Assembly (NCBI GenBank): GCA_028697935.1
Contig: JAQVEM010000002.1
Coordinates: 1-38,619 of the forward strand
Direction: 5' to 3'
Length of the DNA stretch: 38,619 nucleotides
Source of the DNA: Actinomycetota bacterium
GTDB lineage: Bacteria > Actinomycetota > Humimicrobiia > Humimicrobiales > Humimicrobiaceae
Shown here: positions 4,850-20,661 of the stretch, piece by piece
How positions within the stretch are numbered: position 1 is the stretch's first letter
How the letters are laid out: each line of letters starts with the position of its first letter
Notes under the pieces: model-generated
Databases searched by the model: none
Told to the model about the DNA's origin: nothing
Seen by the model: only the letters and a program-made list of their open reading frames with translations
Program-made: the position numbers and the translations under genes

Positions 4850-5701
4850 ATTAACTGGAGTTTTAATAGCGTCCTCGAAAAAAACTTCAAAACGATAATT
4901 TGTAAATTCTGGTATATATTCATCAAACAATATCTTTAAACTAAAATTCTGTTCTTCATCCGGAATCATCTCTTCTCTTTGCAGATAACATTTTCTTATA
5001 AAGACTACCTTTCCACTGCTGTTATAAAAAGTGCAAAAGAGTTTTAAATTCCTTATTTTTTCTGACCCTATATTAATTACTCTTCCTTCAATAACCAAAC
5101 TGTCGCCATCATCATCATAATAATACTTCTCTATCTTTGCCACAGGGTTACCTTCAAATATCTCATTATAGTCTTTGTAATTTACTCCTATCTTTATAAC
5201 GGACATATCTATATATTTTTCTTTTTCATCTATGTAATAGCAAAATGGCAGTCTATCTCCTGTCTTTATATAATCAGCAAATGCCGGTATTGTTCTGGAT
5301 ATAATTTTATCTCCATTTTTACCATAGAAATCCAATGTTATTCCAATATCCGTTTTAATTCCCGGGGAAATGTTTTCTACTTCCCCCATTAATACAAGCT
5401 CCTCATAAATATCTATATACAGGTTACAGTTTTTTATTTTAATATCAGTAGTATCTGTTCCCTCAAGTTTTATTTTTTCACAATCAAATAAATAAAGCCC
5501 GTTTTCTCTTGTTACGTTACTATTATTGGAGTTTACAGTTTTTGTGGATTCATCATCTCCGGGTCTGCAGGATACCAGCATGAACATAAGAATGAGGGAA
5601 AAAATAATTATGATTAAAAAAATTTCTTTAAATAACAAATATTTATATTTAAACTTACTCAATTTAATTTTATTAGTTTTATCAAGAAGCCAGACTAACA
5701 C
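4844..5701 (-). CDS. Hypothetical membrane-anchored lipoprotein with two internally similar beta-rich repeats (FxLYD-like by pattern recall)
   Basis: 285-aa ORF with K-rich n-region, hydrophobic helix and LVSC lipobox. The repeats are LVLMGEVENIS...DFYGKNGDKII and LVIEGRVINIG...TFYNSSGKVVF. Its start overlaps the panD stop by 7 nt. Confidence 0.5.
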   Translation of the reverse strand: MLVWLLDKTNKIKLSKFKYKYLLFKEIFLIIIIFSLILMFMLVSCRPGDDESTKTVNSNNSNVTRENGLYLFDCEKIKLEGTDTTDIKIKNCNLYIDIYEELVLMGEVENISPGIKTDIGITLDFYGKNGDKIISRTIPAFADYIKTGDRLPFCYYIDEKEKYIDMSVIKIGVNYKDYNEIFEGNPVAKIEKYYYDDDGDSLVIEGRVINIGSEKIRNLKLFCTFYNSSGKVVFIRKCYLQREEMIPDEEQNFSLKILFDEYIPEFTNYRFEVFFEDAIKTPVNL

Positions 5702-6078
5702 TGATCATCCTTCAACACATGGTTTTTTTCATCTGTAATTTTATTTCTTTCATCCACATATACTATTTTTGGACGATACTCCAGTGCTTCTTTGTATTCT
5801 ATATAAGTAAAAGACAGGATGATGATTTTCTCTCCTCTTAATATTTTCCGAGCTGCAGCACCATTCATACAAATTTCACCACTACCTCTCTTCCCTTCTA
5901 TAGCATATGTTTCCAGCCTTTCACCACTATCAAGGCTGACAACCAGAACCTTTTCACAGGGCAGTATATTTGCATGCTCCATTAAATTTTTATCTATGCT
6001 TATGCTGCCCGAGTAGTCAATTTCAGCGGCTGTTACTGTAGCCCTGTGAATTTTACTTTTTAATATACAGACTAACAT
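5695..6078 (-). CDS. panD: Aspartate 1-decarboxylase proenzyme
   Basis: 127 aa with KSKIHRATVT and self-cleavage context DYSGSISID. Follows panC. Confidence 0.93.
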   Translation of the reverse strand: MLVCILKSKIHRATVTAAEIDYSGSISIDKNLMEHANILPCEKVLVVSLDSGERLETYAIEGKRGSGEICMNGAAARKILRGEKIIILSFTYIEYKEALEYRPKIVYVDERNKITDEKNHVLKDDQC

Positions 6079-6245
6079 AATTTATTTAACACTCCCTGTT
6101 TAGTATTCACTATTACTTCTTTATAATCTCTTTCTTTTTAATCTTTTTAAATGGATCTTTTAAAACTAAAGCCCCCGCAAACAATTTTTTAACATCTTTC
6201 TTTTTAGACCCATACTATATAACATTACATCCTGCTGGCATATAT

Positions 6246-7106
6246 CTATACCTTTATCATAATATTGTCAATAAGCCTTGTGTTGCCTATCCATGCTGCA
6301 ACAGCTGCAAGTATTTCTCCGTCTTCCCCCCTTCTAACTCTTCTTTTCTCCTGGAGCGTGAGTGGATCTCTGAAATCAAAATAATCTACTTTCCTAACAA
6401 ATTTATTTCCTTCCAATTCTTCTAATACTCTTTTCTTTATCTTTTCAAGATCATTCTCTCCCCCGGCAATCATGTCTCTTGCAATATTCAAACACCTGTA
6501 TAGGATGGTGGCATTTTCTCTTTCCACTCCGGAAAGATATCTATTCCTTGAACTTAAAGCAAGGCCATCCTCCTCTCTTACTATTGGACCGCTTTTAATT
6601 TCGATATCGAGATTCAAATCATCCACCATCTTTTTTATTATCACCAACTGCTGGTAGTCCTTCTCTCCAAAATATGCTTTGTGAGCATTTATAATATTAA
6701 ATAGTTTTAAAACAACTGTCGCCACTCCAGCAAAATGGCCGGGTCTATATTTCCCGCACATAACACTGCTGAGTTCTTTCACCTCAACTGTAGTTTTATG
6801 ATCCTGACCATACATTTCCTGTACCGAAGGATTAAAAATATAATCAACTCCTTCTTTTTCTGCCAGACTGGTGTCCCTTTTTATGTCCCTGGGATATTTC
6901 TTAAAATCTTCATCGGGACCAAATTGCATCGGATTAACAAATATACTTATTATCACTTTATCACAATCTCTTTGTGCCATTCTTATAAGGCTCAGGTGCC
7001 CCTCATGTAGAAATCCCATGGTAGGAACAAAACCTATTTTGTTTCCCTGTTTCCGGAGTTCTTGCATGGCTACCCTGCATTCGTCTATTTTGTTTATAGT
7101 TTTCAT
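6246..7106 (-). CDS. panC: Pantoate--beta-alanine ligase
   Basis: 286 aa with GFVPTMGFLHEGHLSLI (HxGH nucleotidyltransferase motif). Lies between panB and panD. Confidence 0.93.
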   Translation of the reverse strand: MKTINKIDECRVAMQELRKQGNKIGFVPTMGFLHEGHLSLIRMAQRDCDKVIISIFVNPMQFGPDEDFKKYPRDIKRDTSLAEKEGVDYIFNPSVQEMYGQDHKTTVEVKELSSVMCGKYRPGHFAGVATVVLKLFNIINAHKAYFGEKDYQQLVIIKKMVDDLNLDIEIKSGPIVREEDGLALSSRNRYLSGVERENATILYRCLNIARDMIAGGENDLEKIKKRVLEELEGNKFVRKVDYFDFRDPLTLQEKRRVRRGEDGEILAAVAAWIGNTRLIDNIMIKV

Positions 7107-7238
7107 TACTTATAATTATGTTTCTATTAATTAAAATTACTTTTAAGATTGTCTATGTTTTCCATAACTGTGGGTTCCTGACTTACAGATTCCAGCTCTT
7201 TTATAATTAGAATTTAAGAACTTATCATGTAAGATATC

Positions 7239-8042
7239 TTAGTATGAATGTTCTTCGGCTGGAAACTCCTTATTTTTAACTTCTTCTATATATTGCCTGA
7301 AGCATCTTTTAATCTCATCCCCTATATCTGAATATTTTTTAGAAAATTTTGGCGTGAAATCCCCTGATAGCCCGAGCATATCATGCGCTACAAGTACCTG
7401 ACCATCACAATAAACTCCCGCACCTATTCCTATTACAGGAATCTTCACTTCCTCTGTGATTCTTTTTGCAAGCAGTGCAGGAACTTTTTCCAGAACTATC
7501 GAAAATACTCCAGCTTCCTCAAGCCCTTTTGCATCTTCAACCATCTTTGAAGCCTGCTCATCATTTCTCCCCCTGACTCCGTAACCTCCAAACTGATGGA
7601 TTGATTGTGGTGTCAGCCCGAGATGGCCCATTACGGGAATTCCGGACCTGACTATATTATTTACAGTTTCGTAAATTTCTGTCCCTCCTTCAAGTTTCAC
7701 AGCTTCAGCTCCTGCTTCTTTTAAAAACCTTCCTGCATTTCTGACTGCTTCCTCTACACTTGCCTGATAGGACATAAAGGGCATATCCCCGACTACCATA
7801 GCCCTTTTTACTCCCCTGCTAACGGCTTTGCAGTGATGTATCATTTCTTCCATGGTGACCGGTATAGTGCTTTTGTATCCCAGCAGAACATTTGCTACCG
7901 AGTCTCCGACAAGAATTACATCTATCCCGCACTCATCCATCTGGGTTGCCATAAGATAATCATAGGCTGTCAGCATTGCTATTTTTTCTCCTCTTAACTT
8001 CATTTCCATCAGCTCTTTTGTAGTTACCTTTTTAACAGTCAT
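7239..8042 (-). CDS. panB: 3-methyl-2-oxobutanoate hydroxymethyltransferase
   Basis: 267 aa with MLTAYDY, LVGDSVANV, GAEAVKLEGG and IGIGAG motifs typical of PanB. Confidence 0.93.
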   Translation of the reverse strand: MTVKKVTTKELMEMKLRGEKIAMLTAYDYLMATQMDECGIDVILVGDSVANVLLGYKSTIPVTMEEMIHHCKAVSRGVKRAMVVGDMPFMSYQASVEEAVRNAGRFLKEAGAEAVKLEGGTEIYETVNNIVRSGIPVMGHLGLTPQSIHQFGGYGVRGRNDEQASKMVEDAKGLEEAGVFSIVLEKVPALLAKRITEEVKIPVIGIGAGVYCDGQVLVAHDMLGLSGDFTPKFSKKYSDIGDEIKRCFRQYIEEVKNKEFPAEEHSY

Positions 8043-8080
8043 TTAATCACCCTCTTTTTTAATTCCATCTATTCTTCAGT

Positions 8081-9013
8081 CTATTTCTTAAGTATTGCCT
8101 CTAATTCTTCCAGTGTTTTCTTGTTTATCCACTTGTTCCTGTAGGCTATTTTAGCAGTTTCCCTGCCCATTATTTTATATATCATTATATCCTCATCTGG
8201 AAAAATTTTTTTTAAGCTTTCCATATGTTCTTTTATTGTTCCGACATCCCCTCTTGCAATAGGGCCTGTTAAGGATTTTTCTGTTCCTATTTTCTTTATA
8301 TTATCCAGAGTGCCCTCTGATAAACTCAATAATCCTTCCAGTGACTCTTCCGGGTTTATTCCTATTTTTTTATGTAACATTGCAGCATAATTTAATAATG
8401 TCACCATATAGTTTGACGCAATACAGGCTGCTGCGTGGTAAAGAGGTTTTTTTTCATCATCAACTTTTATTGCTTTTCCTTCCAGACATTTAACAATTTT
8501 TCTGGCTATCTTTTCCGATCTTTCCCCGGAATACGTTAAACCATAAACAGTGCCCGGCAGAGTCTTTACTGCCATATTAATTGATGCAAAAGATTTTAAT
8601 GGATGAATTGAGGCGGTTTCTGCACCTGCGTGTCTGGCACTATCAAGAACATCCAGAGACTTTGAGCCACTAAAATGAATTACACAATATTTATTTTTAT
8701 AGTCTTCTATTTTTTCTTTAAAAATTTTTTCATTAAATATTTCATCACAGACAGGTTTTATAGCATCATCGGGAGTACATATTAAGACGCATTCTGCTGT
8801 CTTTGCTGCTTCTATATTATTTTTTGTAAACAATATCCCGGCAGAATTTCGCCCGAGGTATTCTTTTGCTCTATCAAGAGAATTGTCGGTTCTGGATGAT
8901 ATTGCTTTTATTTTTATGCCGCTTGATTCTTTTCCGGATAAGGCATAGCTAAGAGTTGTTCCGAGCCGCCCTGCACCAATAATACATATATTTATAAACA
9001 CTGTCTTGCTCAT
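8081..9013 (-). CDS. Rossmann-fold NAD(P)-binding protein with DUF2520-type C-terminal domain; candidate PanG-type ketopantoate reductase
   Basis: IIGAGRLGTTL dinucleotide loop and C-terminal LTGPIARGD signature. It heads the panBCD cluster. Confidence 0.6.
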   Translation of the reverse strand: MSKTVFINICIIGAGRLGTTLSYALSGKESSGIKIKAISSRTDNSLDRAKEYLGRNSAGILFTKNNIEAAKTAECVLICTPDDAIKPVCDEIFNEKIFKEKIEDYKNKYCVIHFSGSKSLDVLDSARHAGAETASIHPLKSFASINMAVKTLPGTVYGLTYSGERSEKIARKIVKCLEGKAIKVDDEKKPLYHAAACIASNYMVTLLNYAAMLHKKIGINPEESLEGLLSLSEGTLDNIKKIGTEKSLTGPIARGDVGTIKEHMESLKKIFPDEDIMIYKIMGRETAKIAYRNKWINKKTLEELEAILKK

Positions 9014-10178: not shown

Positions 10179-10469
10179 TTATCTTCTCCAGTGTGATTAA
10201 AAATATTTGTTATATTCTAATATATATATCATTTAATTTAAATACTTAGTAATAACTATAAAAACTGTTAAAAATGTTTAAAACTAACAAAAACATCTAT
10301 ATATAACAAAAAACCGGGTATATTATTGTTAATAAATAATATTTATGTTGTTTAAAAAAACAGAGTTATAAACAAATACTATAATTATAAAAAAAACACC
10401 ATTGTTATTAACAATAAACTAACAAAAAATTTTTTATCATACACTACTTATTAACAGGTTATAAACATC
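10179..10469. other. oriC segment (dnaA-dnaN spacer): AT-rich tract plus five TTATWAACA DnaA-box-like 9-mers
   Basis: Boxes at 10327-10335 (reverse), 10366-10374, 10405-10413, 10448-10456 and 10459-10467. 15-bp palindrome ATTGTTATTAACAAT at 10401-10415. 10200-10320 is almost pure A/T. Confidence 0.6.
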
Positions 10470-11831
10470 TTAAGAAGAGTTTTTTATTCTATTTGTGATC
10501 TCTTGTATTTGTGTATATACAGTTTTATCTATGTTTATAAGGTCTGATATTTTCGATACAGCATAAATTACAGTAGAGTGATCACGGTTACCAATACACC
10601 TTCCAATTTCTGGAAGGGAACTACTGGTTAGTTCTCTTGAAAGATACATTGCAAGCTGGCGCGCATGTGATATAAACTTATTTCTTTTAGGACCCAGAAG
10701 ATCATTAATAGGTATTGAAAAATACCTTGATACCTCTTTAACAATTAATTGAATATTTATTTTACGTTCTCTGTTGTCAGGTAATATGTCTTTAAGAACA
10801 TTCCTTGCTATTTCAATATCTGGTTTGGAATTAGTTAGAGAAGCAAATGCGATAACTCTGGTAAGGGAGCCTTCAAGCTCTCTTATATTTGATGTAATGT
10901 TTTCAGCTATAAGACTTATAATATCATCTGAAACACAGATACCTTCTCTTTCAGAATATTTTTTTAATATTGCAAAACGGGTTTCAAAGTCAGGTGGTTT
11001 AATGTCTGTTACAAGACCCCACTCAAATCTTGACCGCAACCGTTCTTCCAATGTTGAGATACTTTTCGGAGGCCTGTCGCTCGATAAAACAATTTGTCTG
11101 TTTGTATCGTGTAGAGCGTTAAACGTATGAAAAAATTCTTCCTGGCTTGCTTCCTTGTCTTCAAGAAAATGTATATCATCCACGAGTAAAACATCATTAT
11201 TCCTGTAGTTCTCCTTAAACGAAAATATATCTTTGTATCTTAAGGCATTAATAAAATCATTAAGAAAAGTTTCAGCAGATACATATTTTATTGTCTTATC
11301 AGGATAAAGCTGGTGTGTATATTGTCCTATCGCATGAAGTAGATGGGTTTTACCGAGACCAACACCACCATATATAAAAAGAGGATTATATGCTTTACCG
11401 GGCTTCTCGCTAACAGCAAGAGCAGCTGTGCAGGCAAACCTGTTACTGTTACCGACAACAAAAGTATCAAAAGTATATTTAGTATTAAATGATGAAATCC
11501 TGCCCTTTTGTCCTTTATGGCTTTTATCTAACTGATTATCGGGTGAACGCTCATTATAGGTGTAATCAGTGTCTTTATCATCTAAAGATGTTGCAATTAT
11601 TTTTATTTTACATGGACTGTTTGTAACTTTTTTTACTGATTCTTCAAGAAGATCTGAATATCGAAGCTCAATCCATTCTTTCGCAAAGGAACTACTAACT
11701 GAAACAGTTAAACAGTTTTTTTTTAAAGACACAGGTGTTATGTGCTCAAACCATGCTTTATATGTAGAAAGATTAATCTTATTTTTAATATCCTCAAGAG
11801 TACCTTTCCAGATGTTCTGTAGATCCGTCAT
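10470..11831 (-). CDS. dnaA: Chromosomal replication initiator protein DnaA
   Basis: 453 aa with AAA+ Walker A GGVGLGKTHLLHAIG and a C-terminal DNA-binding domain (...ISHARQLAMYLSRELT...IGNRDHSTV). Confidence 0.97.
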   Translation of the reverse strand: MTDLQNIWKGTLEDIKNKINLSTYKAWFEHITPVSLKKNCLTVSVSSSFAKEWIELRYSDLLEESVKKVTNSPCKIKIIATSLDDKDTDYTYNERSPDNQLDKSHKGQKGRISSFNTKYTFDTFVVGNSNRFACTAALAVSEKPGKAYNPLFIYGGVGLGKTHLLHAIGQYTHQLYPDKTIKYVSAETFLNDFINALRYKDIFSFKENYRNNDVLLVDDIHFLEDKEASQEEFFHTFNALHDTNRQIVLSSDRPPKSISTLEERLRSRFEWGLVTDIKPPDFETRFAILKKYSEREGICVSDDIISLIAENITSNIRELEGSLTRVIAFASLTNSKPDIEIARNVLKDILPDNRERKINIQLIVKEVSRYFSIPINDLLGPKRNKFISHARQLAMYLSRELTSSSLPEIGRCIGNRDHSTVIYAVSKISDLINIDKTVYTQIQEITNRIKNSS

Positions 11832-11843
11832 AATACCCTTATA

Positions 11844-12689
11844 TTAAATATTATTTGAATAATATTCAAGGTATTTTAGCCCCTTTTTGGACAATTTTCT
11901 TTTTCCGTTGCTACCGGATACAAGAAAATCATTCTTTTCAAGATAAATTAATTCGCGATACGAAGTCGAAAGGCTGAAACCCAGTTCCCGGGCAATTGTA
12001 GATGGGCCAGCTTCATTGAGTTCTAAGATTATAAAAAGAATTTTATGATGTCTGTCAGAAAGAACTGTACTTTCAAAGCTATCAATATCTTCGGTCTGGA
12101 TTTTTTCTTTAAAAGCGCCGGCTTTAAAAAGATTTCTTTCGATATCTTCTATATTTGTTTCTGAAGTGGTAGAGGAATCTATTTTATTAAGATCTGGAGT
12201 TAGTTTTAAAGATACAACTGTTCCTGTTTTTATGTTGTTATTGACGTCGATTGTCCCACCAGAGAAAGTAATGGTTTCTTTAACTATTGGAAGACCCGAA
12301 CCTATGCCTCTAATATATTCTTTCATTTTTTTAGTGGCAGAGGTATATCCTGGAAGAAAAGCTTTTTCTCTATCTATTATTCCCGGTCCCTGGTCTGATA
12401 TAATTATGTGGTTACCGTTATCAAGAATTGTTACGACAACTTCCTTGAAATCAGCATGGATAAGGTTTTCTATTATTTCTCTTATTATTGTGTAAGGAAT
12501 TTTACCACCTGCTTCATGAGATAAGTTATAAGTTCTCTGGGATGTTTCATTTATAAGATTTTCAATGCTATCAAAATCTAGTTTAATTACTCTTGGAATG
12601 CTTCGCATGTTATCATAAACTGCTATTCTTACCGATAGATCAGGTTTATTTTTAGTTGATTCATTTGTTTCAGTGTTATTGTTGTCCAA
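11844..12689 (-). CDS. Orphan GHKL (histidine-kinase-like) ATPase domain fused to a C-terminal winged-helix DNA-binding domain; function unknown
   Basis: 281-aa ORF. N box IIREIIENLIHAD, G1 DQGPGI, G2 GIGSGL, G3 KTGTVV. No DHp/His helix and no TM segment. C-terminal HHKILFIILELNEAGPSTIARELGFSLSTSYRELIYLEKNDFLV looks wHTH-like. The stop is 12 nt before the dnaA ATG. The start (TTG 12689, or Met28) is uncertain. Confidence 0.6.
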   Translation of the reverse strand: MDNNNTETNESTKNKPDLSVRIAVYDNMRSIPRVIKLDFDSIENLINETSQRTYNLSHEAGGKIPYTIIREIIENLIHADFKEVVVTILDNGNHIIISDQGPGIIDREKAFLPGYTSATKKMKEYIRGIGSGLPIVKETITFSGGTIDVNNNIKTGTVVSLKLTPDLNKIDSSTTSETNIEDIERNLFKAGAFKEKIQTEDIDSFESTVLSDRHHKILFIILELNEAGPSTIARELGFSLSTSYRELIYLEKNDFLVSGSNGKRKLSKKGLKYLEYYSNNI

Positions 12690-12769
12690 TTTGATATTAT
12701 AAACTATTAATTATTAATCGTACCTTAGAGTTAGAGTCAGGTTAATAAGTTTAATAAATGTCAAAAAAT

Positions 12770-12798
12770 ATTTTAGAAAAAAGACTGGCACTTTTCAA
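12770..12798 (-). promoter_or_regulatory. Candidate sigma70-type promoter for the GHKL-wHTH/dnaA transcription unit
   Basis: Minus strand TTGAAA (12798-12793), 17 nt, TAAAAT (12775-12770). Confidence 0.4.
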
Positions 12799-12818: not shown

Positions 12819-13260
12819 TTTTCAACACATAAATAATAATATTTTAATATCAAAAAAGCTACTATATTTTATAAGCCTATTACAGGATAAATACTTTTTG
12901 ACATGCAATACAGTGGGAAATTTAGAGTTATCAACATTTTTTTCAACAGGTGTGGAAAGATTTTTGAAATTATTGAAATACTTTGTAAAAGCTTACTGTA
13001 TAAAATGAAAAAAACCATAGCATTCCAAAAACTTTTTCACAAAGAACACCTGTTTGTAAAAGATAAGAAAACTTCTAAAGTTTTATAAATGGAAAACGGA
13101 GGTCCTGTTGACAATAAGAATTATGATTATTAGTATTATATTAATATACAATAATAATGTTAAGTAATATATAGTTAATAATAAGTGTATAATTGTAAAA
13201 TGTATAGTTATTATTAAAAAGCATATGCTATATAATTCTTACTATACATAACGAACTTTT
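12819..13260. other. oriC segment upstream of the dnaA operon: DnaA-box-like cluster followed by an AT-rich tract
   Basis: TTTTCAACA at 12819-12827 and 12940-12948, TTATCAACA at 12928-12936, TGTGGAAAG at 12951-12959, TTTTTCACA at 13033-13041, TGTTGACAA at 13106-13114. Each has 1-2 mismatches to TTATCCACA/TGTGGATAA. 13115-13260 is almost pure A/T, with TATAGTTAWTAWTAA at 13170-13184 and 13203-13217. Confidence 0.55.
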
Positions 13261-13349
13261 ACCTGTTATGTAAAGTTAACAGGAGATATCCGTAAGAAAA
13301 TAAACAGAACAGACACTTCTCCAGTAAATAGTATGCATTCCCGGTGTCC

Positions 13350-13378
13350 TTGATATTAGAAAAATTAAAATGTATAAT
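13350..13378 (+). promoter_or_regulatory. Candidate sigma70-type promoter of rpmH-rnpA-yidD-yidC-jag
   Basis: TTGATA (13350-13355), 17 nt, TATAAT (13373-13378), ~45 nt upstream of the rpmH ATG. Confidence 0.55.
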
Positions 13379-13422: not shown

Positions 13423-13557
13423 ATGAAAATGACATATCAGCCAAATGTTAGGAAAAGAAAAAAGAATCATGGATTTATGGCCAGGATGAAGACAAAATCG
13501 GGCAGGGCTATTATTAATGCCAGGAGAAGAAAAGGAAGAAAGAGACTTTCAGCTTAA
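13423..13557 (+). CDS. rpmH: 50S ribosomal protein L34
   Basis: 44-aa ORF below the ORF-track length cut-off: [44 protein letters not shown]. Confidence 0.95.
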
Positions 13558-17293: not shown

Positions 17294-18637
17294 ATGGTTA
17301 AAGAAAATAATAAACTAAAATATGATGTGATAGTAATTGGTTCAGGTCATGCAGGCTGTGAAGCAGCACTGGCGGCCGCAAGAGGTGGCGCTAAAACTCT
17401 TCTTGTTTCAATCAATCTGGATACTGTTGTGTTAACACCTTACGGGAATGAGATGGGAGGAGCAGGGCGAGATCTGTTAATAAAGGAAATAGACATTATG
17501 GGAGGAGAAATACTTAAAAACATTAAAAATAATTATATTAGTATTAGACTAGATAATAAGTGGACTGATTATCAAGTAAAAACCACCAAAGTTCTTGTTG
17601 ATAGAAGAAGATATTTACTTTTTATGAAGAAAGTTATTGAAAATCAGGAAAATCTGGACCTCAGGCAGGGCTTGATAGTAGAAATATTTAGAAATGGGGA
17701 TTTATATAATTTAAAAACAAGTGATGGGATCACATACTCAGCTTACTCGGTCATTGTATGTACTGGAACTTTTCTTGGTGGAAAAATATTTTGGGGAGGG
17801 TATGAATTAGAAGCTGGCAGACAGGGAGAAATATGTTCCAGGAGGCTTCTTGAGAGTTTAAAAAGTTATGGATTTAAGTTTAAAAGAGTAAGAAATTATG
17901 TTGCCCCGCTGGCAGACAGTAAAACAATAAAAAGGGAAAATTTTGATAAATTGCTATTCAAAGGAGAAAATAATGATTTTTTATTCGGGGATGAATTGAA
18001 AGTTAAAAGACAAATGTATAGTTATAAAACATACATAAATAAAAATTTTGTTGATTACTTATTAAAAAATAAGAATAAAATAGAATTTTCAGATAAATTC
18101 AGCAATAAAAATGATGCTGATTTTAACTCTATTGAATCAGTGATATTAAGAAATAAATACAAAGAAAAGATCGAAGTTTTCATAAATCCTACTGGTAGGG
18201 ATACAACCGAAGTATATCTAAAGGGCCTTGAAACAGCCCTTCATGAAAAATTACAGACCATGATGTTAAAAAAATTGATTGGTTTTGGGAGTGCAGAGAT
18301 TACCAGGCCGGGTTATGGTATTGAATACAATATCCTGAGCCCACACCAATTAAAAAGTGATTTACAGGCTAAAAATATGGAAGGGATCTATTTTGCTGGA
18401 CTTATAAATGGAACAGCAGGCTACGAAGAATCTGCTGCTCAGGGAATGGTTGCTGGTATGAATGCCGCAAGAAGGTGCAAAGGACTTAGAAGTATTTGCA
18501 TTAAGAAAGAAGATAGCTGTACAGGAATGCTCATAGACCATATTATATCCGGAGACAGTAATAGCAGGAGTTTATATCGAATAAACCCGGGCCTGGAGGA
18601 ATATATGTCCTACAGAAGAAAAATATCCAATGTATAG
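17294..18637 (+). CDS. MnmG(GidA)-like FAD-binding paralogue lacking both conserved cysteines and the C-terminal MnmE-binding domain
   Basis: 447 aa. DVIVIGSGHAGCEAALAAAR, TRPGYGIEYN and YFAGLINGTAGYEESAAQG match the adjacent mnmG. PCNPSIGG is replaced by PYGNEMGG and HCPSID by DFNSIE. It ends shortly after LIDHIIS. Confidence 0.75.
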   Translation: MVKENNKLKYDVIVIGSGHAGCEAALAAARGGAKTLLVSINLDTVVLTPYGNEMGGAGRDLLIKEIDIMGGEILKNIKNNYISIRLDNKWTDYQVKTTKVLVDRRRYLLFMKKVIENQENLDLRQGLIVEIFRNGDLYNLKTSDGITYSAYSVIVCTGTFLGGKIFWGGYELEAGRQGEICSRRLLESLKSYGFKFKRVRNYVAPLADSKTIKRENFDKLLFKGENNDFLFGDELKVKRQMYSYKTYINKNFVDYLLKNKNKIEFSDKFSNKNDADFNSIESVILRNKYKEKIEVFINPTGRDTTEVYLKGLETALHEKLQTMMLKKLIGFGSAEITRPGYGIEYNILSPHQLKSDLQAKNMEGIYFAGLINGTAGYEESAAQGMVAGMNAARRCKGLRSICIKKEDSCTGMLIDHIISGDSNSRSLYRINPGLEEYMSYRRKISNV

Positions 18638-18777: not shown

Positions 18778-20661
18778 ATGAACTACGATGTGATAGTTGT
18801 AGGAGCCGGTCACGCAGGTTGTGAGGCTGCACTGGCAACAGCAAGATTGGGTTTAAAAACGTTGATTATTACTATTAATCCTGACAAGATAGCTTTAATG
18901 CCGTGTAATCCTTCAATAGGTGGGGTAGGGAAAAGTCAGCTTGTAAGTGAACTTGACGCACTGGGTGGAGAGATGGCAAAGGTTGCTGATAAGACATATA
19001 TACAGTTAAGAGTATTAAATAAAAGAAAAGGTCCTGCAGTACAGGCTCTCAGAGCGCAGATAGATAAAAAAGAATATGAAATAGAAATGAAAAGGACCCT
19101 TGAGAATACGGAAAATTTAACCCTGAGACAGGGGACAGTTAATAAAATACTTGTAAAAAATGGTAGTGCAACAGGTGTAATTATAGAAAGTGGTCTGGAG
19201 TTCAAAGCAAAGGCAGTAATAGTGACAACAGGAACTTTTCTTAGAGGCAGGATAATTATCGGGAGAAAAGATTATCATGCAGGCAGGATGGGAGAGTATC
19301 CTGCAATGAATTTAACAAATAATCTAATTTCTTTGGGATTTAAAATAGGAAGATTCCAGACAGCAACTCCTCCAAGGGTTGACAAAAGGACACTGGACCT
19401 ATCAAAAACAGAAATACAGAAGGGGGAGGAAGAGCCAGCAGGGTTTTCCATCTGGAATAAAGAAGGAATTCGTAAAAATATTGAATGCTATTTAACTTAT
19501 ACAAACAAAAAAACAAATGAAATTGTTAGAAAAAATATAAAAGAATCTCCTATAAAATCAGGGATGGTTGACACGCATGGACCAAGACACTGTCCTTCTA
19601 TTGATAGAAAAGTAATTAATTTTCCAGAGAAAACAAGGCACCCAATTTTTATTGAGCCCGAGGGTGAAAATACTAATGAAATGTATTTACAGGGGCTGAC
19701 TACAAGTATGCCTCCTGAAATACAGCAAAAAATAATAAATACTGTAAGTGGACTAGAGAATGCAAGGATAATAAGACCCGGCTACGCAGTAGAGTATGAT
19801 TACATAATTCCAAATCAATTAAATTTTACACTTGAATCAAAAAAGATTGATAATTTATATTTTGCCGGGCAGATAAACGGTACATCAGGGTACGAGGAAG
19901 CTGCTGTTCAGGGGTTTTTAGCCGGTGTTAATGCAGCGCAGAAAATAAAAAATAAACCTCCCCTTATCCTGACAAGAGATAATAGCTATATAGGTGTCCT
20001 GATTGATGATCTTATAACTAAAAAACTGATAGAACCCTATAGAATGTATACATCAAGAGCAGAGTACAGACTAATACTAAGGTGTGACAATGCTGATATA
20101 AGATTGAGTGGTTACGGGAAAAACATTGGGCTAATAACCAGTGAACAGTATAAAAAAGTTCTAAATAAAGAAAATAAAATAAACGAAGTTATAGAAAAAT
20201 TAAAATCAATATGGGTAAATCCAGGTAAGATCACCGTACAGCATTTTGAAAATTTAGATATGAAATCGAAAACAGATATTTCACTAAGTGCTTATAAAAT
20301 TTTAAAAAGACCCGGAGTTGATATAGATAATATTATAGATCTTTTTGATGATTCAAACGGGGGCTATGATAAAGAAATATTAAAGCAAGTAGAAATTATA
20401 GTAAAGTATGAGGGATATATAAACAGGCAGATAAATGATATTAAAAAGATGGAAGGACTTGAGAAATATTACCTTCCACAAGACCTTAATTATTTTGACA
20501 TAAGAGGGCTGACCTATGAAGCAAAAGAAAAGCTTTCAGAAATTAAACCAGACACTCTCGGGCAGGCTTCAAGGATAGCTGGAATATCTCCCGCAGACAT
20601 ATCAATACTTATGTTAAATTTGAAAGGTAAATTAAAAAAGGTGAAACAGTTTGGATATTGA
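18778..20661 (+). CDS. mnmG: tRNA uridine-5-carboxymethylaminomethyl synthesis enzyme MnmG (GidA)
   Basis: 627 aa, full length, with MPCNPSIGG, GPRHCPSID, FAGQINGTSGYEEAAVQG and a C-terminal helical domain. Confidence 0.96.
   Translation: MNYDVIVVGAGHAGCEAALATARLGLKTLIITINPDKIALMPCNPSIGGVGKSQLVSELDALGGEMAKVADKTYIQLRVLNKRKGPAVQALRAQIDKKEYEIEMKRTLENTENLTLRQGTVNKILVKNGSATGVIIESGLEFKAKAVIVTTGTFLRGRIIIGRKDYHAGRMGEYPAMNLTNNLISLGFKIGRFQTATPPRVDKRTLDLSKTEIQKGEEEPAGFSIWNKEGIRKNIECYLTYTNKKTNEIVRKNIKESPIKSGMVDTHGPRHCPSIDRKVINFPEKTRHPIFIEPEGENTNEMYLQGLTTSMPPEIQQKIINTVSGLENARIIRPGYAVEYDYIIPNQLNFTLESKKIDNLYFAGQINGTSGYEEAAVQGFLAGVNAAQKIKNKPPLILTRDNSYIGVLIDDLITKKLIEPYRMYTSRAEYRLILRCDNADIRLSGYGKNIGLITSEQYKKVLNKENKINEVIEKLKSIWVNPGKITVQHFENLDMKSKTDISLSAYKILKRPGVDIDNIIDLFDDSNGGYDKEILKQVEIIVKYEGYINRQINDIKKMEGLEKYYLPQDLNYFDIRGLTYEAKEKLSEIKPDTLGQASRIAGISPADISILMLNLKGKLKKVKQFGY

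Follow-up and report, generated by a model that had tools for sequence, protein, structure and literature searches.

Introduction

The question raised by the locus described here is what a protein with an ATP-binding domain and a winged helix, encoded directly ahead of the initiator gene dnaA, is there to do. Few gene neighbourhoods in bacteria are as conserved as rpmH-dnaA-dnaN, and MtrA, CtrA, Spo0A and HP1021 are regulators of the two-component type that bind to oriC or to dnaA. To our knowledge, most of what regulates DnaA is unknown except in E. coli, Bacillus and Caulobacter. For the Actinobacteria in particular, one published account states the same (PMC5720831). The stretch of DNA analysed in this work (the window, 38,619 nt of an Actinomycetota contig) contains an open reading frame, designated here gene X, which had been described from the sequence letters as an orphan fusion of a GHKL-type ATPase and a winged helix. 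The original prediction took its product to be either an ATP-dependent DNA-binding factor acting on oriC or on dnaA expression, or an anti-sigma-like kinase co-expressed with the initiator.

Results and Discussion

Gene X and Its Reading Frame

Gene X is a real gene, located at positions 11844..12689 of the reverse strand as originally predicted and encoding 281 amino acid residues from a TTG start codon to a TAA stop codon at 11846-11844 (ORF list and translation). Its product matched the Pfam family HATPase_c (E = 1.2e-11), a sequence search returned 718 homologues, of which the close ones were all of about 283 residues, and in an alignment of relatives (A1) strong purifying selection was found over the whole length, with a mean column identity of 76%. 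The ancestral ATG start codon of the relatives has been lost in gene X, and the TTG codon is not preceded by a Shine-Dalgarno sequence. The first 17 residues (12639..12689, reverse strand) form a variable N-terminal tail of low model confidence, with a pLDDT of 58 for residues 1-10 in the AlphaFold2 model. The stop codon of gene X and the dnaA ATG codon at 11831 are separated by 12 nt, TATAAGGGTATT, a distance that was verified in the sequence, and dnaA itself (10470..11831, reverse strand, 453 residues), identified as an ORF and by tblastn across loci, lies directly downstream.

Domain Architecture of the Protein

Residues 18-165 (12195..12638, reverse strand) comprise a beta-hairpin (residues 18-39) and a helix (42-59) followed by an HK-type Bergerat ATP-binding domain, as judged from the AlphaFold2 model, Foldseek, Pfam and an alignment of 83 family members. 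HATPase_c (PF02518) matched residues 66-164 with 45.4 bits (cut-off 26.4), and it was matched by all 83 members scanned. The motifs present are an N box E71xxE74N75xxH78, a G1 box D99xGxG, an F-box-like FLPGY, a G2 box G128xGxG and a G3 box G156T, and the segments to which the original prediction had assigned them (IIREIIENLIHAD at residues 68-80, DQGPGI at 99-104, GIGSGL at 128-133 and KTGTVV at 154-159) were found in the translation at just these positions. Residues N75, D99, G101, G103, G128, G130, G132 and G156 were invariant across the 83 diverse members and E71 and E74 were conserved in at least 90% of them; judged from this alignment, the ATP-binding residues of the family are intact. 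Motif I, E71-x-x-E74-N75-x-x-H78-A79, has the GHL spacing, but with His in place of Asp at N+3. The model, of mean pLDDT 87, was obtained from an 83-sequence alignment (a 21-sequence alignment gave pLDDT 44), and Foldseek aligned it with the catalytic domains of HK853, CpxA, BCKDK and PDK (E about 1e-6).

No Pfam family matched the first 65 residues, no recognisable domain was seen in the N-terminal extensions of longer homologues, and the N-terminal hairpin and helix are a family-specific feature. Neither Pfam nor NCBIfam detected a HisKA/DHp, transmembrane, sensor or receiver domain in the protein, in agreement with the earlier description of a Bergerat-fold protein devoid of these parts, and in the model just one helix (residues 42-59) precedes the N box. 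A cryptic H-box was considered, as phmmer paired NLSHEAGG of gene X with the H-box of HK853; it was rejected on the grounds that H58 is unconserved outside the close clade (Q, R or K stands in its place elsewhere) and precedes the N-box Asn by only 17 residues.

Residues 166-205 (12075..12194, reverse strand) form a disordered, acidic and Ser/Thr-rich linker, with pLDDT values of 46-58 across residues 171-200 and below 50 for residues 185-199. Members of the family differ in the length and composition of this linker, and in Collinsella it reaches about 250 residues and is Q/P-rich (alignments; ORFs of loci L160 and L111). A winged helix-turn-helix follows at residues 206-281 (11847..12074, reverse strand), with a recognition helix at about residues 240-252, STSYRELIYLEK, a basic wing, GKRKLSKKG, and pLDDT values of 96-98 across residues 211-270. 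In the gene X protein alone the winged helix remained below the Pfam thresholds (TrmB, E = 0.021, 15 bits); in relatives it exceeded the cut-offs (TrmB 34.5 bits, HTH_24 31.2, IclR 31.3), and HTH_IclR was matched by 38 of the 83 members. Searched against the PDB, the family profile matched winged-helix proteins (3b73 with E = 5.6e-5, 2x4h, MntR, AdcR and Csa3), and Csa3/CasR winged-helix models also matched the gene X protein. The S-T-A-x-R core of the recognition helix is kept across clades, which fits a conserved DNA target. The succession of linker and winged helix, already proposed in the original prediction, is backed by the PDB profile matches, the Pfam matches of relatives and the model. 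The protein as a whole consists of an ATP-binding domain and a C-terminal winged helix joined by a disordered linker.

The Gene X Family and Its Linkage to dnaA

The designation of gene X as an orphan has to be given up, because it has a large family, with at least 334 clusters (50% identity) matching at E ≤ 1e-30. No family model in Pfam or NCBIfam describes this family, and nothing describing it was found in the literature. Its genomic context was surveyed for relatives at E ≤ 1e-30. The conjecture that homologues might lie systematically just upstream of dnaA was borne out: in 140 of the 141 testable loci dnaA was found by tblastn directly downstream and on the same strand, the gap being mostly 3-100 nt, and 12 nt in the Humimicrobiia-type lineage. 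At 70% identity these loci fall into 35 clusters, with GC contents of 32-72%. Bac_DnaA Pfam families matched the downstream gene in loci L072-L080, and among 160 loci retrieved by similarity to X alone no copy of X away from dnaA was found.

The X-dnaA pair is present in several Actinomycetota classes, including Collinsella and Adlercreutzia, as well as in Bacillota and Armatimonadota MAGs; Rubrobacter-type MAGs also have the family, and the cultured organisms that carry it are Collinsella aerofaciens or Collinsella sp. OM04-5, and Adlercreutzia equolifaciens. Most X loci retain the whole rpmH-dnaA-dnaN block. The pair is kept in Armatimonadota that have no rpmH nearby and in the Adlercreutzia type, in which dnaN is transcribed divergently and rpmH is found on the downstream side. 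In the window and in the loci with gene calls the neighbours of X were rpmH/rnpA and dnaA/dnaN, and no STAS, anti-anti-sigma, sigma-factor or response-regulator gene was found beside X in the window or in loci L072-L080. Homologues within partner-switching modules of the SpoIIAB/RsbW type, which the original prediction had named as evidence that would speak against it, were likewise not found. An association with defence systems or phages was considered and dropped, as PADLOC matched only the winged helix, through its Csa3/CasR models, and PHROGs only generic kinases. The family is large, uncharacterised and located directly ahead of dnaA in several phyla. The functional ties among the other genes of the dnaA-dnaN-recF-gyrB block are only loose, and a position beside dnaA is no proof of a role in replication.

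The Upstream Region and the Origin

Gene rpmH (13423..13557, forward strand) is divergent from X, and its promoter, TTGATA-17-TATAAT at 13350-13378, lies in a conserved block (promoter scan, upstream alignment). Upstream of X, the promoter-like site TTGAAA-17-TAAAAT (12770..12798, reverse strand), which had been singled out before, is indeed present and scores 10 of 12 matches, its -35 region being located within a block conserved among relatives. The DnaA-box-like repeats noted beside it also proved to be there: motif scans and the upstream alignment delimited a cluster at 12819..13114 (no strand assigned) with TTTTCAACA, TTATCAACA, TTGTCAACA and CTTTCCACA. Of the 10 TTNTCMACA matches in the window, 4 fall into this cluster. 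At about 12933-12957 two boxes stand head to head, CTTTCCACA-CC-TGTTGAAAA. The TGTTGAAAA box was seen 101 times in 46 related upstream regions, and the head-to-head pair in 86 of 150 loci as compared with once in 1.12 Mb elsewhere. Such a pair of DnaA boxes is located upstream of X in most lineages, and these boxes may simply be DnaA sites. The local variant of the box is TTTTC(A/C)ACA; the E. coli consensus TTATCCACA, with at most one mismatch, was not enriched.

The AT-rich dnaA-dnaN spacer (10179..10469, no strand assigned) contains 8 box-like TTWTHMACA sites in the motif scan, and TTATCAACA occurs in this spacer in 21 of 37 relatives; the origin is probably bipartite, with this spacer as its second half. 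The cumulative GC skew has its minimum at about 11-13 kb. Genes parA and parB were found in the same region as gene X.

The X/dnaA Junction

Synonymous-site entropy, codon usage and the junction alignment revealed a nucleotide-frozen element over the last 8 codons and the stop codon of X (11841..11870, reverse strand). The synonymous-site entropy was 0.20 in this element vs. about 0.75 elsewhere, the major-codon fraction was 0.94 vs. 0.60 elsewhere and topped every other run of 10 informative codons, and the block was invariant in 37 loci. It consists of a -35-like TTGAAT (11869-11864), an invariant 17-nt spacer and a -10-like TAATAT (11846-11841), placed 6-9 nt ahead of the dnaA ATG, and it includes a perfect 7-1-7 (15-bp) palindrome, TTGAATAtTATTCAA, at 11869-11855, which occurs once in the window and once per locus in 42 loci. 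This palindrome is confined to the Humimicrobiia-type lineage, and no palindrome common to all clades was found at the X/dnaA junction. Between the -10-like hexamer and the start codon of dnaA lies the spacer AAGGGTATT (11832..11840, reverse strand), which is variable in relatives, so that the apparent AAGGG Shine-Dalgarno sequence reported earlier is unconserved. An RNA structure at the junction was rejected (fold z = -1.3; no compensatory changes in the outer stem) and a DNA element was preferred; Rfam returned no family in the window.

The original prediction had held that dnaA has no room for a proximal promoter and has largely to be read through from gene X. This view is doubtful, because a frozen promoter-like element ends the ORF and the X-dnaA spacers of some Coriobacteriia, of 50-80 nt, hold DnaA boxes of their own. 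The junction element is probably a regulated proximal dnaA promoter, for which a transcription start near A11834 is predicted from the standard -10 to +1 spacing, and the palindrome could reflect the promoter plus some other constraint. Control of dnaA may be layered, with read-through from the upstream promoter and a regulated proximal promoter giving a nearly leaderless mRNA.

Proposed Role and Alternative Explanations

The gene X family, fixed beside dnaA across several phyla that include cultured human gut bacteria, is a concrete and testable candidate, and judged from its sequences a strong one, for an unknown regulator of chromosome replication. From the sequence and the model, the explanation to which we lean, at somewhat better than even chances, is that its protein is a nucleotide-gated, one-component DNA-binding regulator at the dnaA/oriC locus. 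By binding or turning over ATP, the Bergerat domain would govern whether the protein dimerises or whether its winged helix is available; the winged helix would bind a palindromic site near dnaA, and the DNA-bound protein would tune dnaA transcription or the access of DnaA to the origin. Two candidate targets may be put forward: in the Humimicrobiia-type lineage, the invariant TTGAATAtTATTCAA over the -35 hexamer and spacer of the putative proximal dnaA promoter, and in most lineages the head-to-head DnaA-box pair upstream of X. Of the original hypothesis of a factor acting on oriC or on dnaA expression, the architecture and the linkage to dnaA (140/141) stand, and DNA binding, the target site, ATP dependence and an effect on initiation are what we infer from sequence and model. 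ATP-binding domains of the histidine kinase type are usually kinases and not ligand sensors, and this counts against a nucleotide-gated regulator. A bolder version, which we regard as possible and rather doubtful, would make X an unrecognised ancient initiation regulator of Terrabacteria, ATP-gated and binding the head-to-head box pair (here also the promoter palindrome) in competition or cooperation with DnaA, so as to couple initiator synthesis and origin firing to the adenylate state of the cell in lineages devoid of all known DnaA regulators.

The same catalytic domain could instead serve a protein kinase or an ATP-dependent binding partner of the SpoIIAB/RsbW or PDK/BCKDK kind, phosphorylating or sequestering another protein, with DnaA as the obvious candidate, or possibly its own linker, while the winged helix merely localises X to the origin. 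The domain does belong to the kinase branch of the fold, with its F-box-like FLPGY, its G2 lid, no transducer domain and E71 at N-4; its best structural matches are HK853, CpxA, BCKDK and PDK, SpoIIAB was matched at the profile level (E = 6e-4), and the co-orientation and tight spacing with dnaA fit stoichiometric co-expression. We consider a kinase unlikely all the same, given that there is no conserved acceptor His (H58 being Q, R or K in other clades), that adjacent STAS, anti-anti-sigma or sigma genes are absent, that TIGR01925 scored 21.4 bits against a cut-off of 135, and that the Ser/Thr-rich linker is unconserved and Q/P-rich in Collinsella; the anti-sigma-like variant raised earlier has no contextual support. 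A little less probable still is that X is a transcription factor of the usual kind, or a housekeeping protein with an unrelated function, kept beside dnaA only because the origin-proximal block rarely rearranges. The high conservation of the rpmH-dnaA-dnaN block, whole in most X loci, agrees with such a bystander, but the X-dnaA pair outlives breakage of the block in Armatimonadota without a nearby rpmH and in the Adlercreutzia type, it holds in 140/141 loci over 32-72% GC, and no copy elsewhere turned up among the 160 loci retrieved by similarity to X alone.

Motif I, E-x-x-E-N-x-x-H-A, has the spacing of MutL/GyrB/MORC, and MutL N-terminal domains were matched at the profile level (E = 1.2e-5). 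Together with a conserved N-terminal segment bearing an almost invariant Tyr25, and with parA and parB in the same region, this could point to an ATP-driven DNA clamp or architectural origin protein of GHL/MORC-like type, organising or segregating the origin rather than regulating dnaA. Such a protein seems quite improbable, as neither a transducer or S5 domain nor a second DNA gate is present (Pfam, model), the lid and G2 box of X resemble those of HKs, the protein is small, and in the model its N-terminal strands form part of the sheet, with no free strap. The matches in NCBIfam were all to C-terminal parts of sensor kinases, as a degenerate, functionless remnant of a two-component histidine kinase would give, but that reading is effectively refuted by conservation: purifying selection is strong over the full length (mean column identity 76%, A1), the ATP-binding residues are invariant across phyla, and the family has at least 334 clusters.

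Comparison with Known Systems

The best sequence and structure matches of the protein are the CA domains of sensor histidine kinases (HK853, KinB, CpxA), which share its fold and its N, G1, F-like, G2 and G3 motifs. Unlike these kinases, X has no DHp/HisKA domain, conserved phospho-His, sensor or transmembrane segment or cognate response regulator, and it carries the extra N-terminal hairpin and helix and the fusion to a winged helix. SpoIIAB/RsbW and the mitochondrial PDK/BCKDK are Bergerat-fold kinases that are likewise devoid of a DHp domain and whose target is another protein; their profile and structural similarity to X is weak, and X differs from them in its DNA-binding domain, in having no partner-switching genes nearby and in scores far under the cut-off. 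For the mode of action, the closest analogy is with Csa3/CasR and the TrmB/MarR-type one-component regulators, in which a nucleotide- or ligand-binding domain is likewise followed by a winged helix of the same class; in X, however, the place of a CARF or sugar-binding domain is taken by a GHKL ATP-binding domain as the putative sensor, and a long disordered linker joins the two domains.

The only solved structure that aligned over both domains of X (282 columns, TM 0.45) was DIP2311 of Corynebacterium diphtheriae (PDB 3lmm; AlbA_2, HATPase_c_4 and winged helix), which is 10-11% identical to X, has an extra N-terminal domain and is also uncharacterised. The likeness is structural only, as AlbA_2 (Schlafen-like) and HATPase_c_4 gave no Pfam match in X or in the scanned members. 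We know of no link of DIP2311 to dnaA.

With MtrA, CtrA, Spo0A and HP1021, and with SirA, YabA, Soj, Hda, SeqA and DiaA, X may share the role of passing a signal to initiation through the origin or the dnaA promoter. It is unrelated to all of these in sequence and in domains. The earlier statement that its architecture is unlike that of the described initiation regulators was supported, as Pfam and NCBIfam returned only HATPase_c and winged-helix families and no homology to SirA, YabA, Soj, DnaD, Hda, SeqA or DiaA, and the literature offered no such architecture. Unlike all these regulators, X unites the ATP-binding domain, as the putative signal-processing part, and the DNA-binding domain in one polypeptide, and its gene is fixed beside dnaA. 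If it acts on dnaA or oriC, X would be the first GHKL-domain initiation regulator and a one-polypeptide counterpart of the two-component origin inputs MtrA, CtrA and Spo0A.

Architecture and ATP Site of the X Product

Gene X (11844–12689, minus strand) encodes 281 amino acids, from a TTG start to a TAA stop at 11846–11844, and is separated by 12 nt (TATAAGGGTATT) from the ATG of dnaA at 11831. The ORF was genuine, and all the motifs of the original prediction were found at the residues assigned to them. Pfam placed HATPase_c at residues 66–164 (E = 1.2e-11), and HisKA, receiver, sensor and transmembrane domains, which had been predicted to be lacking, were all undetected in X with Pfam and NCBIfam; no NCBIfam model reached its cut-off. 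The winged helix-turn-helix (wHTH) was sub-threshold when X was taken singly (Pfam TrmB, E = 0.021). Its assignment was upheld at the family level by the profile of 83 members, which matched solved wHTH repressors (3b73, 5.6e-5; also 2x4h, MntR, AdcR/ZitR and Csa3), by relatives of X exceeding the Pfam cut-offs for TrmB, HTH_24, IclR and MarR, and by the AlphaFold2 model of X, in which the winged helix is visible.

This model had a mean pLDDT of 87 when built from an alignment of 83 diverse homologues, and a pLDDT of 44 with a shallow alignment. Residues 18–165 were modelled as two strands (18–24 and 33–39) and a helix (42–59) followed by a classical Bergerat ATP-binding domain with an N-box helix (66–78), an ATP lid (~99–131), a G2 helix (132–142) and two closing strands; a disordered linker (166–205) led to a confidently modelled winged helix (206–281). 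Foldseek against the PDB retrieved the catalytic domains of HK853, CpxA, YycG, BCKDK and PDK (E ~1e-6, ~150 columns), and the one chain aligning over both X domains was DIP2311 (3lmm; 282 columns, TM 0.45). A Pfam search with the N-terminal hairpin-and-helix module matched no family. The first ~17 residues are variable, and at 12687–12720 the TTG start lacks a Shine-Dalgarno sequence, the ATG used by relatives a few codons further upstream (M..IKLD) having been lost.

Residues N75, H78, D99, G101, G103, G128, G130, G132, N152 and G156 were invariant in the 83 members (30–75% identical), and E71 and E74 were conserved in at least 90% of them. Since the residues of the N-, G1-, G2- and G3-boxes are invariant or nearly so, the ATP site is under selection and the domain is no relic. 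The sequence 'LSHE', aligned by phmmer as an H-box, was rejected as such; it is conserved in the close clade only, and because its His varies beyond that clade X has no phospho-acceptor His. The S-T-A-x-R core of the wHTH recognition helix was kept across clades in the alignments.

The X Family and Its Linkage to dnaA

X had been regarded as an orphan; it belongs in fact to a large family, with 718 homologues found by a word-indexed search. When 1.84 billion representatives were searched exhaustively with a profile, 453 clusters (50% identity) matched at E ≤ 1e-10, 334 of them at E ≤ 1e-30. The close homologues, of about 283 amino acids, come from Candidatus Hydromicrobium/Humimicrobiaceae MAGs, and the Collinsella version falls in a cluster of 19,470 sequences. 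Database names were confined to 'ATP-binding protein', 'predicted HTH transcriptional regulator' or 'hypothetical'.

To survey the neighbourhood, loci were chosen purely by similarity to X (71 from species-representative genomes, 9 by exact protein look-up and 80 from metagenomes), and DnaA, DnaN, RpmH and RnpA were located in them by tblastn. The survey covered homologues closer than E = 1e-30. Where 400 nt or more remained downstream of X, which was so in 141 loci, dnaA was the next gene on the same strand in 140, so that these homologues are systematically upstream of dnaA. The sole exception, locus L117, had 424 nt left after X, in a lineage whose DnaA is detectable only from a point further downstream. 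Between the X stop codon and the earliest possible start of dnaA, loci of the window's lineage have 12 nt and Rubrobacter-like and Miltoncostaeaceae-like loci 3 nt; elsewhere the distance is mostly below 100 nt.

The dnaA-positive loci formed 35 single-linkage clusters at 70% identity, with 32–72% GC. By record titles and protein names they belonged to Humimicrobiia, Aquicultor, Thermofontivivens, Rubrobacter, Thermoleophilia/Miltoncostaeaceae, 'Bacillati bacterium ANGP1', Bacillota MAGs and Armatimonadota. Two human-gut loci, whose neighbouring DnaA, DnaN, RecF and RnpA proteins had exact matches, could be assigned in this way to Collinsella (C. aerofaciens or Collinsella sp. OM04-5) and Adlercreutzia equolifaciens. 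No STAS, sigma-factor or response-regulator neighbours were seen in the loci examined; being linked to dnaA and devoid of STAS or sigma-factor neighbours, the homologues surveyed are thus not scattered in partner-switching modules.

The interdomain linker of X reaches ~150–250 amino acids in Coriobacteriia, where it is low-complexity and Q/P- or P/A-rich (Collinsella, L160 3812–5236; Adlercreutzia, L111 3893–5062); their DnaA likewise has a long low-complexity domain II. Interrupted genes, representing frameshifts or assembly errors, were seen in two loci: X in L042 (5001–5999), where the match reaches residue 163 only and is followed by a 407-nt gap, and dnaA in L152.

Probable Origin Region and DNA Upstream of X

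The surroundings of X are origin-like, with rpmH-rnpA-yidD-yidC divergent on one side, dnaA-dnaN on the other, and the minimum of cumulative GC skew at ~11–13 kb. Four of the ten DnaA-box-like TTNTCMACA sites of the window lie at 12819–13114, upstream of X. The AT-rich dnaA-dnaN spacer (10179–10469, 291 bp) contains eight TTWTHMACA box-like sites and a perfect 13-nt inverted repeat, TTATTGTTAATAA (10323–10335) and TTATTAACAATAA (10405–10417); the origin is probably bipartite, with this spacer as its second half. Downstream of dnaN, where recF-gyrB would be usual, the minus strand carries a DUF2520/Rossmann gene and panB, panC and panD (5695–9013). A TrmFO-like ORF of 447 aa (17294–18637), lying between mnmE and rsmG, was the one confirmed GIDA-family gene; its 627-aa neighbour (18778–20661) is a putative mnmG by position and length only.

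The box variant TGTTGAAAA (other strand TTTTCAACA) was counted 101 times, and TGTGGAAAA 40 times, across 46 related rpmH-X spacers. Among the conserved blocks of the spacer alignment were the rpmH promoter, an array of boxes and, from the promoter originally predicted upstream of X (TTGAAA-17-TAAAAT, 12798–12770), the −35 region. A head-to-head box pair, TTWTC(C/A)ACA-N2-3-TGT(G/T)GAWAA, recurred across clades and phyla: of the 150 X-bearing loci whose upstream sequence was long enough, 86 had it, against a single occurrence in the other 1.12 Mb fetched. It lay a median of 299 nt before the conserved X core (~165–400 nt upstream of the X match in L023–L134), and in the window at ~12933–12957 (CTTTCCACA-CC-TGTTGAAAA). 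These boxes are the only palindrome common to most X lineages, and may simply be DnaA sites.

The rpmH-X spacer measures 733 nt in the window versus a median of 492 in relatives. A very AT-rich, palindrome-rich stretch of ~220 nt (~13126–13347), whose counterpart is missing from most related loci, could have been inserted or could serve this lineage as an unwinding region.

The X/dnaA Junction

In a codon alignment of 40 Humimicrobiia-type X genes the normalised synonymous-site entropy was ~0.7–0.8 along the gene and only 0.20 at its final codons. The stretch beginning at L274 and ending with the stop had a major-codon fraction of 0.94 versus 0.60 elsewhere, topping every other run of ten informative codons; at one frozen Leu codon CTT was used in 40/40 genes, the other Leu columns reaching at most 0.66. 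The frozen element (11841–11870, minus strand) covers the last eight X codons and the stop, reads C-TTGAAT-ATTATTCAAATAATATT-TAATAT, and is followed by 6–9 variable nt and the dnaA ATG. Its arrangement is −35/17/−10. The 'AAGGG' Shine-Dalgarno sequence proposed for dnaA falls in the variable stretch, where relatives have TAGAG, ACCCT or ATGAC.

Within the element TTGAATAtTATTCAA forms a perfect 7-1-7 palindrome (15 bp), of which 42 loci have exactly one copy each and the window a single one. Because the 17-nt spacer is frozen as well and the perfect palindrome occurs once per locus, the pattern points to a putative dimeric protein-binding site over the promoter. Judged from the alignment, the element is probably an operator-bearing proximal dnaA promoter inside the X ORF. 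From it, transcription would start 0–3 nt ahead of the dnaA ATG and the mRNA would have no leader or almost none, as is common in Actinobacteria. An RNA hairpin was a weak candidate (fold z = −1.3), its outer-stem positions varying uncompensated in the alignment as read. In some Coriobacteriia (e.g., L136) DnaA boxes lie within the 50–80 nt X-dnaA spacer.

The original prediction left dnaA no room for a proximal promoter and had it largely read through from X. Co-transcription is plausible, given gaps of 3–15 nt in many clades, but the frozen −35/17/−10 arrangement inside the ORF makes the lack of room doubtful, and read-through is probably not the sole route to dnaA expression.

Likely Function of X

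From the observed architecture, intact ATP site, family, dnaA linkage and conserved DNA elements, we lean towards X being a nucleotide-gated one-component DNA-binding regulator at the dnaA/oriC locus. ATP binding or turnover would control dimerisation or release of the wHTH, which would bind one of two candidate palindromes, that of the junction or the head-to-head boxes, and so might tune dnaA transcription or the access of DnaA to the origin.

X could instead be a DHp-less kinase or a binding partner acting on DnaA, an unlikely reading. That X is a passenger gene retained by synteny we also regard as unlikely; the X-dnaA pair is kept in Armatimonadota, where rpmH is not nearby, and in the Adlercreutzia type, where rpmH comes after dnaA and dnaN-recF diverge on the upstream side. 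A GHL-like origin clamp is quite improbable: the spacing of motif I, E-x-x-E-N-x-x-[D/H]-A, is that of MutL/GyrB, while the lid, F-like box and G2 box are kinase-like and a transducer domain is absent. A dead kinase remnant is scarcely credible in view of the selection on the ATP site.

Comparison with Known Systems

Lacking DHp, phospho-His and response regulator, X is no histidine kinase; its score far under the cut-off and the absence of partner genes set it apart from SpoIIAB-type kinases, and the missing transducer domain from GHL ATPases. It is unrelated to any known DnaA regulator, and literature searches returned no description of the family. The parts of X are familiar; their combination and invariant coupling to dnaA are undescribed so far. 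By analogy X would work most like the sensor-plus-wHTH one-component regulators, of which Csa3 and TrmB are closest, but with an ATP-binding domain of the histidine-kinase type as its sensor.
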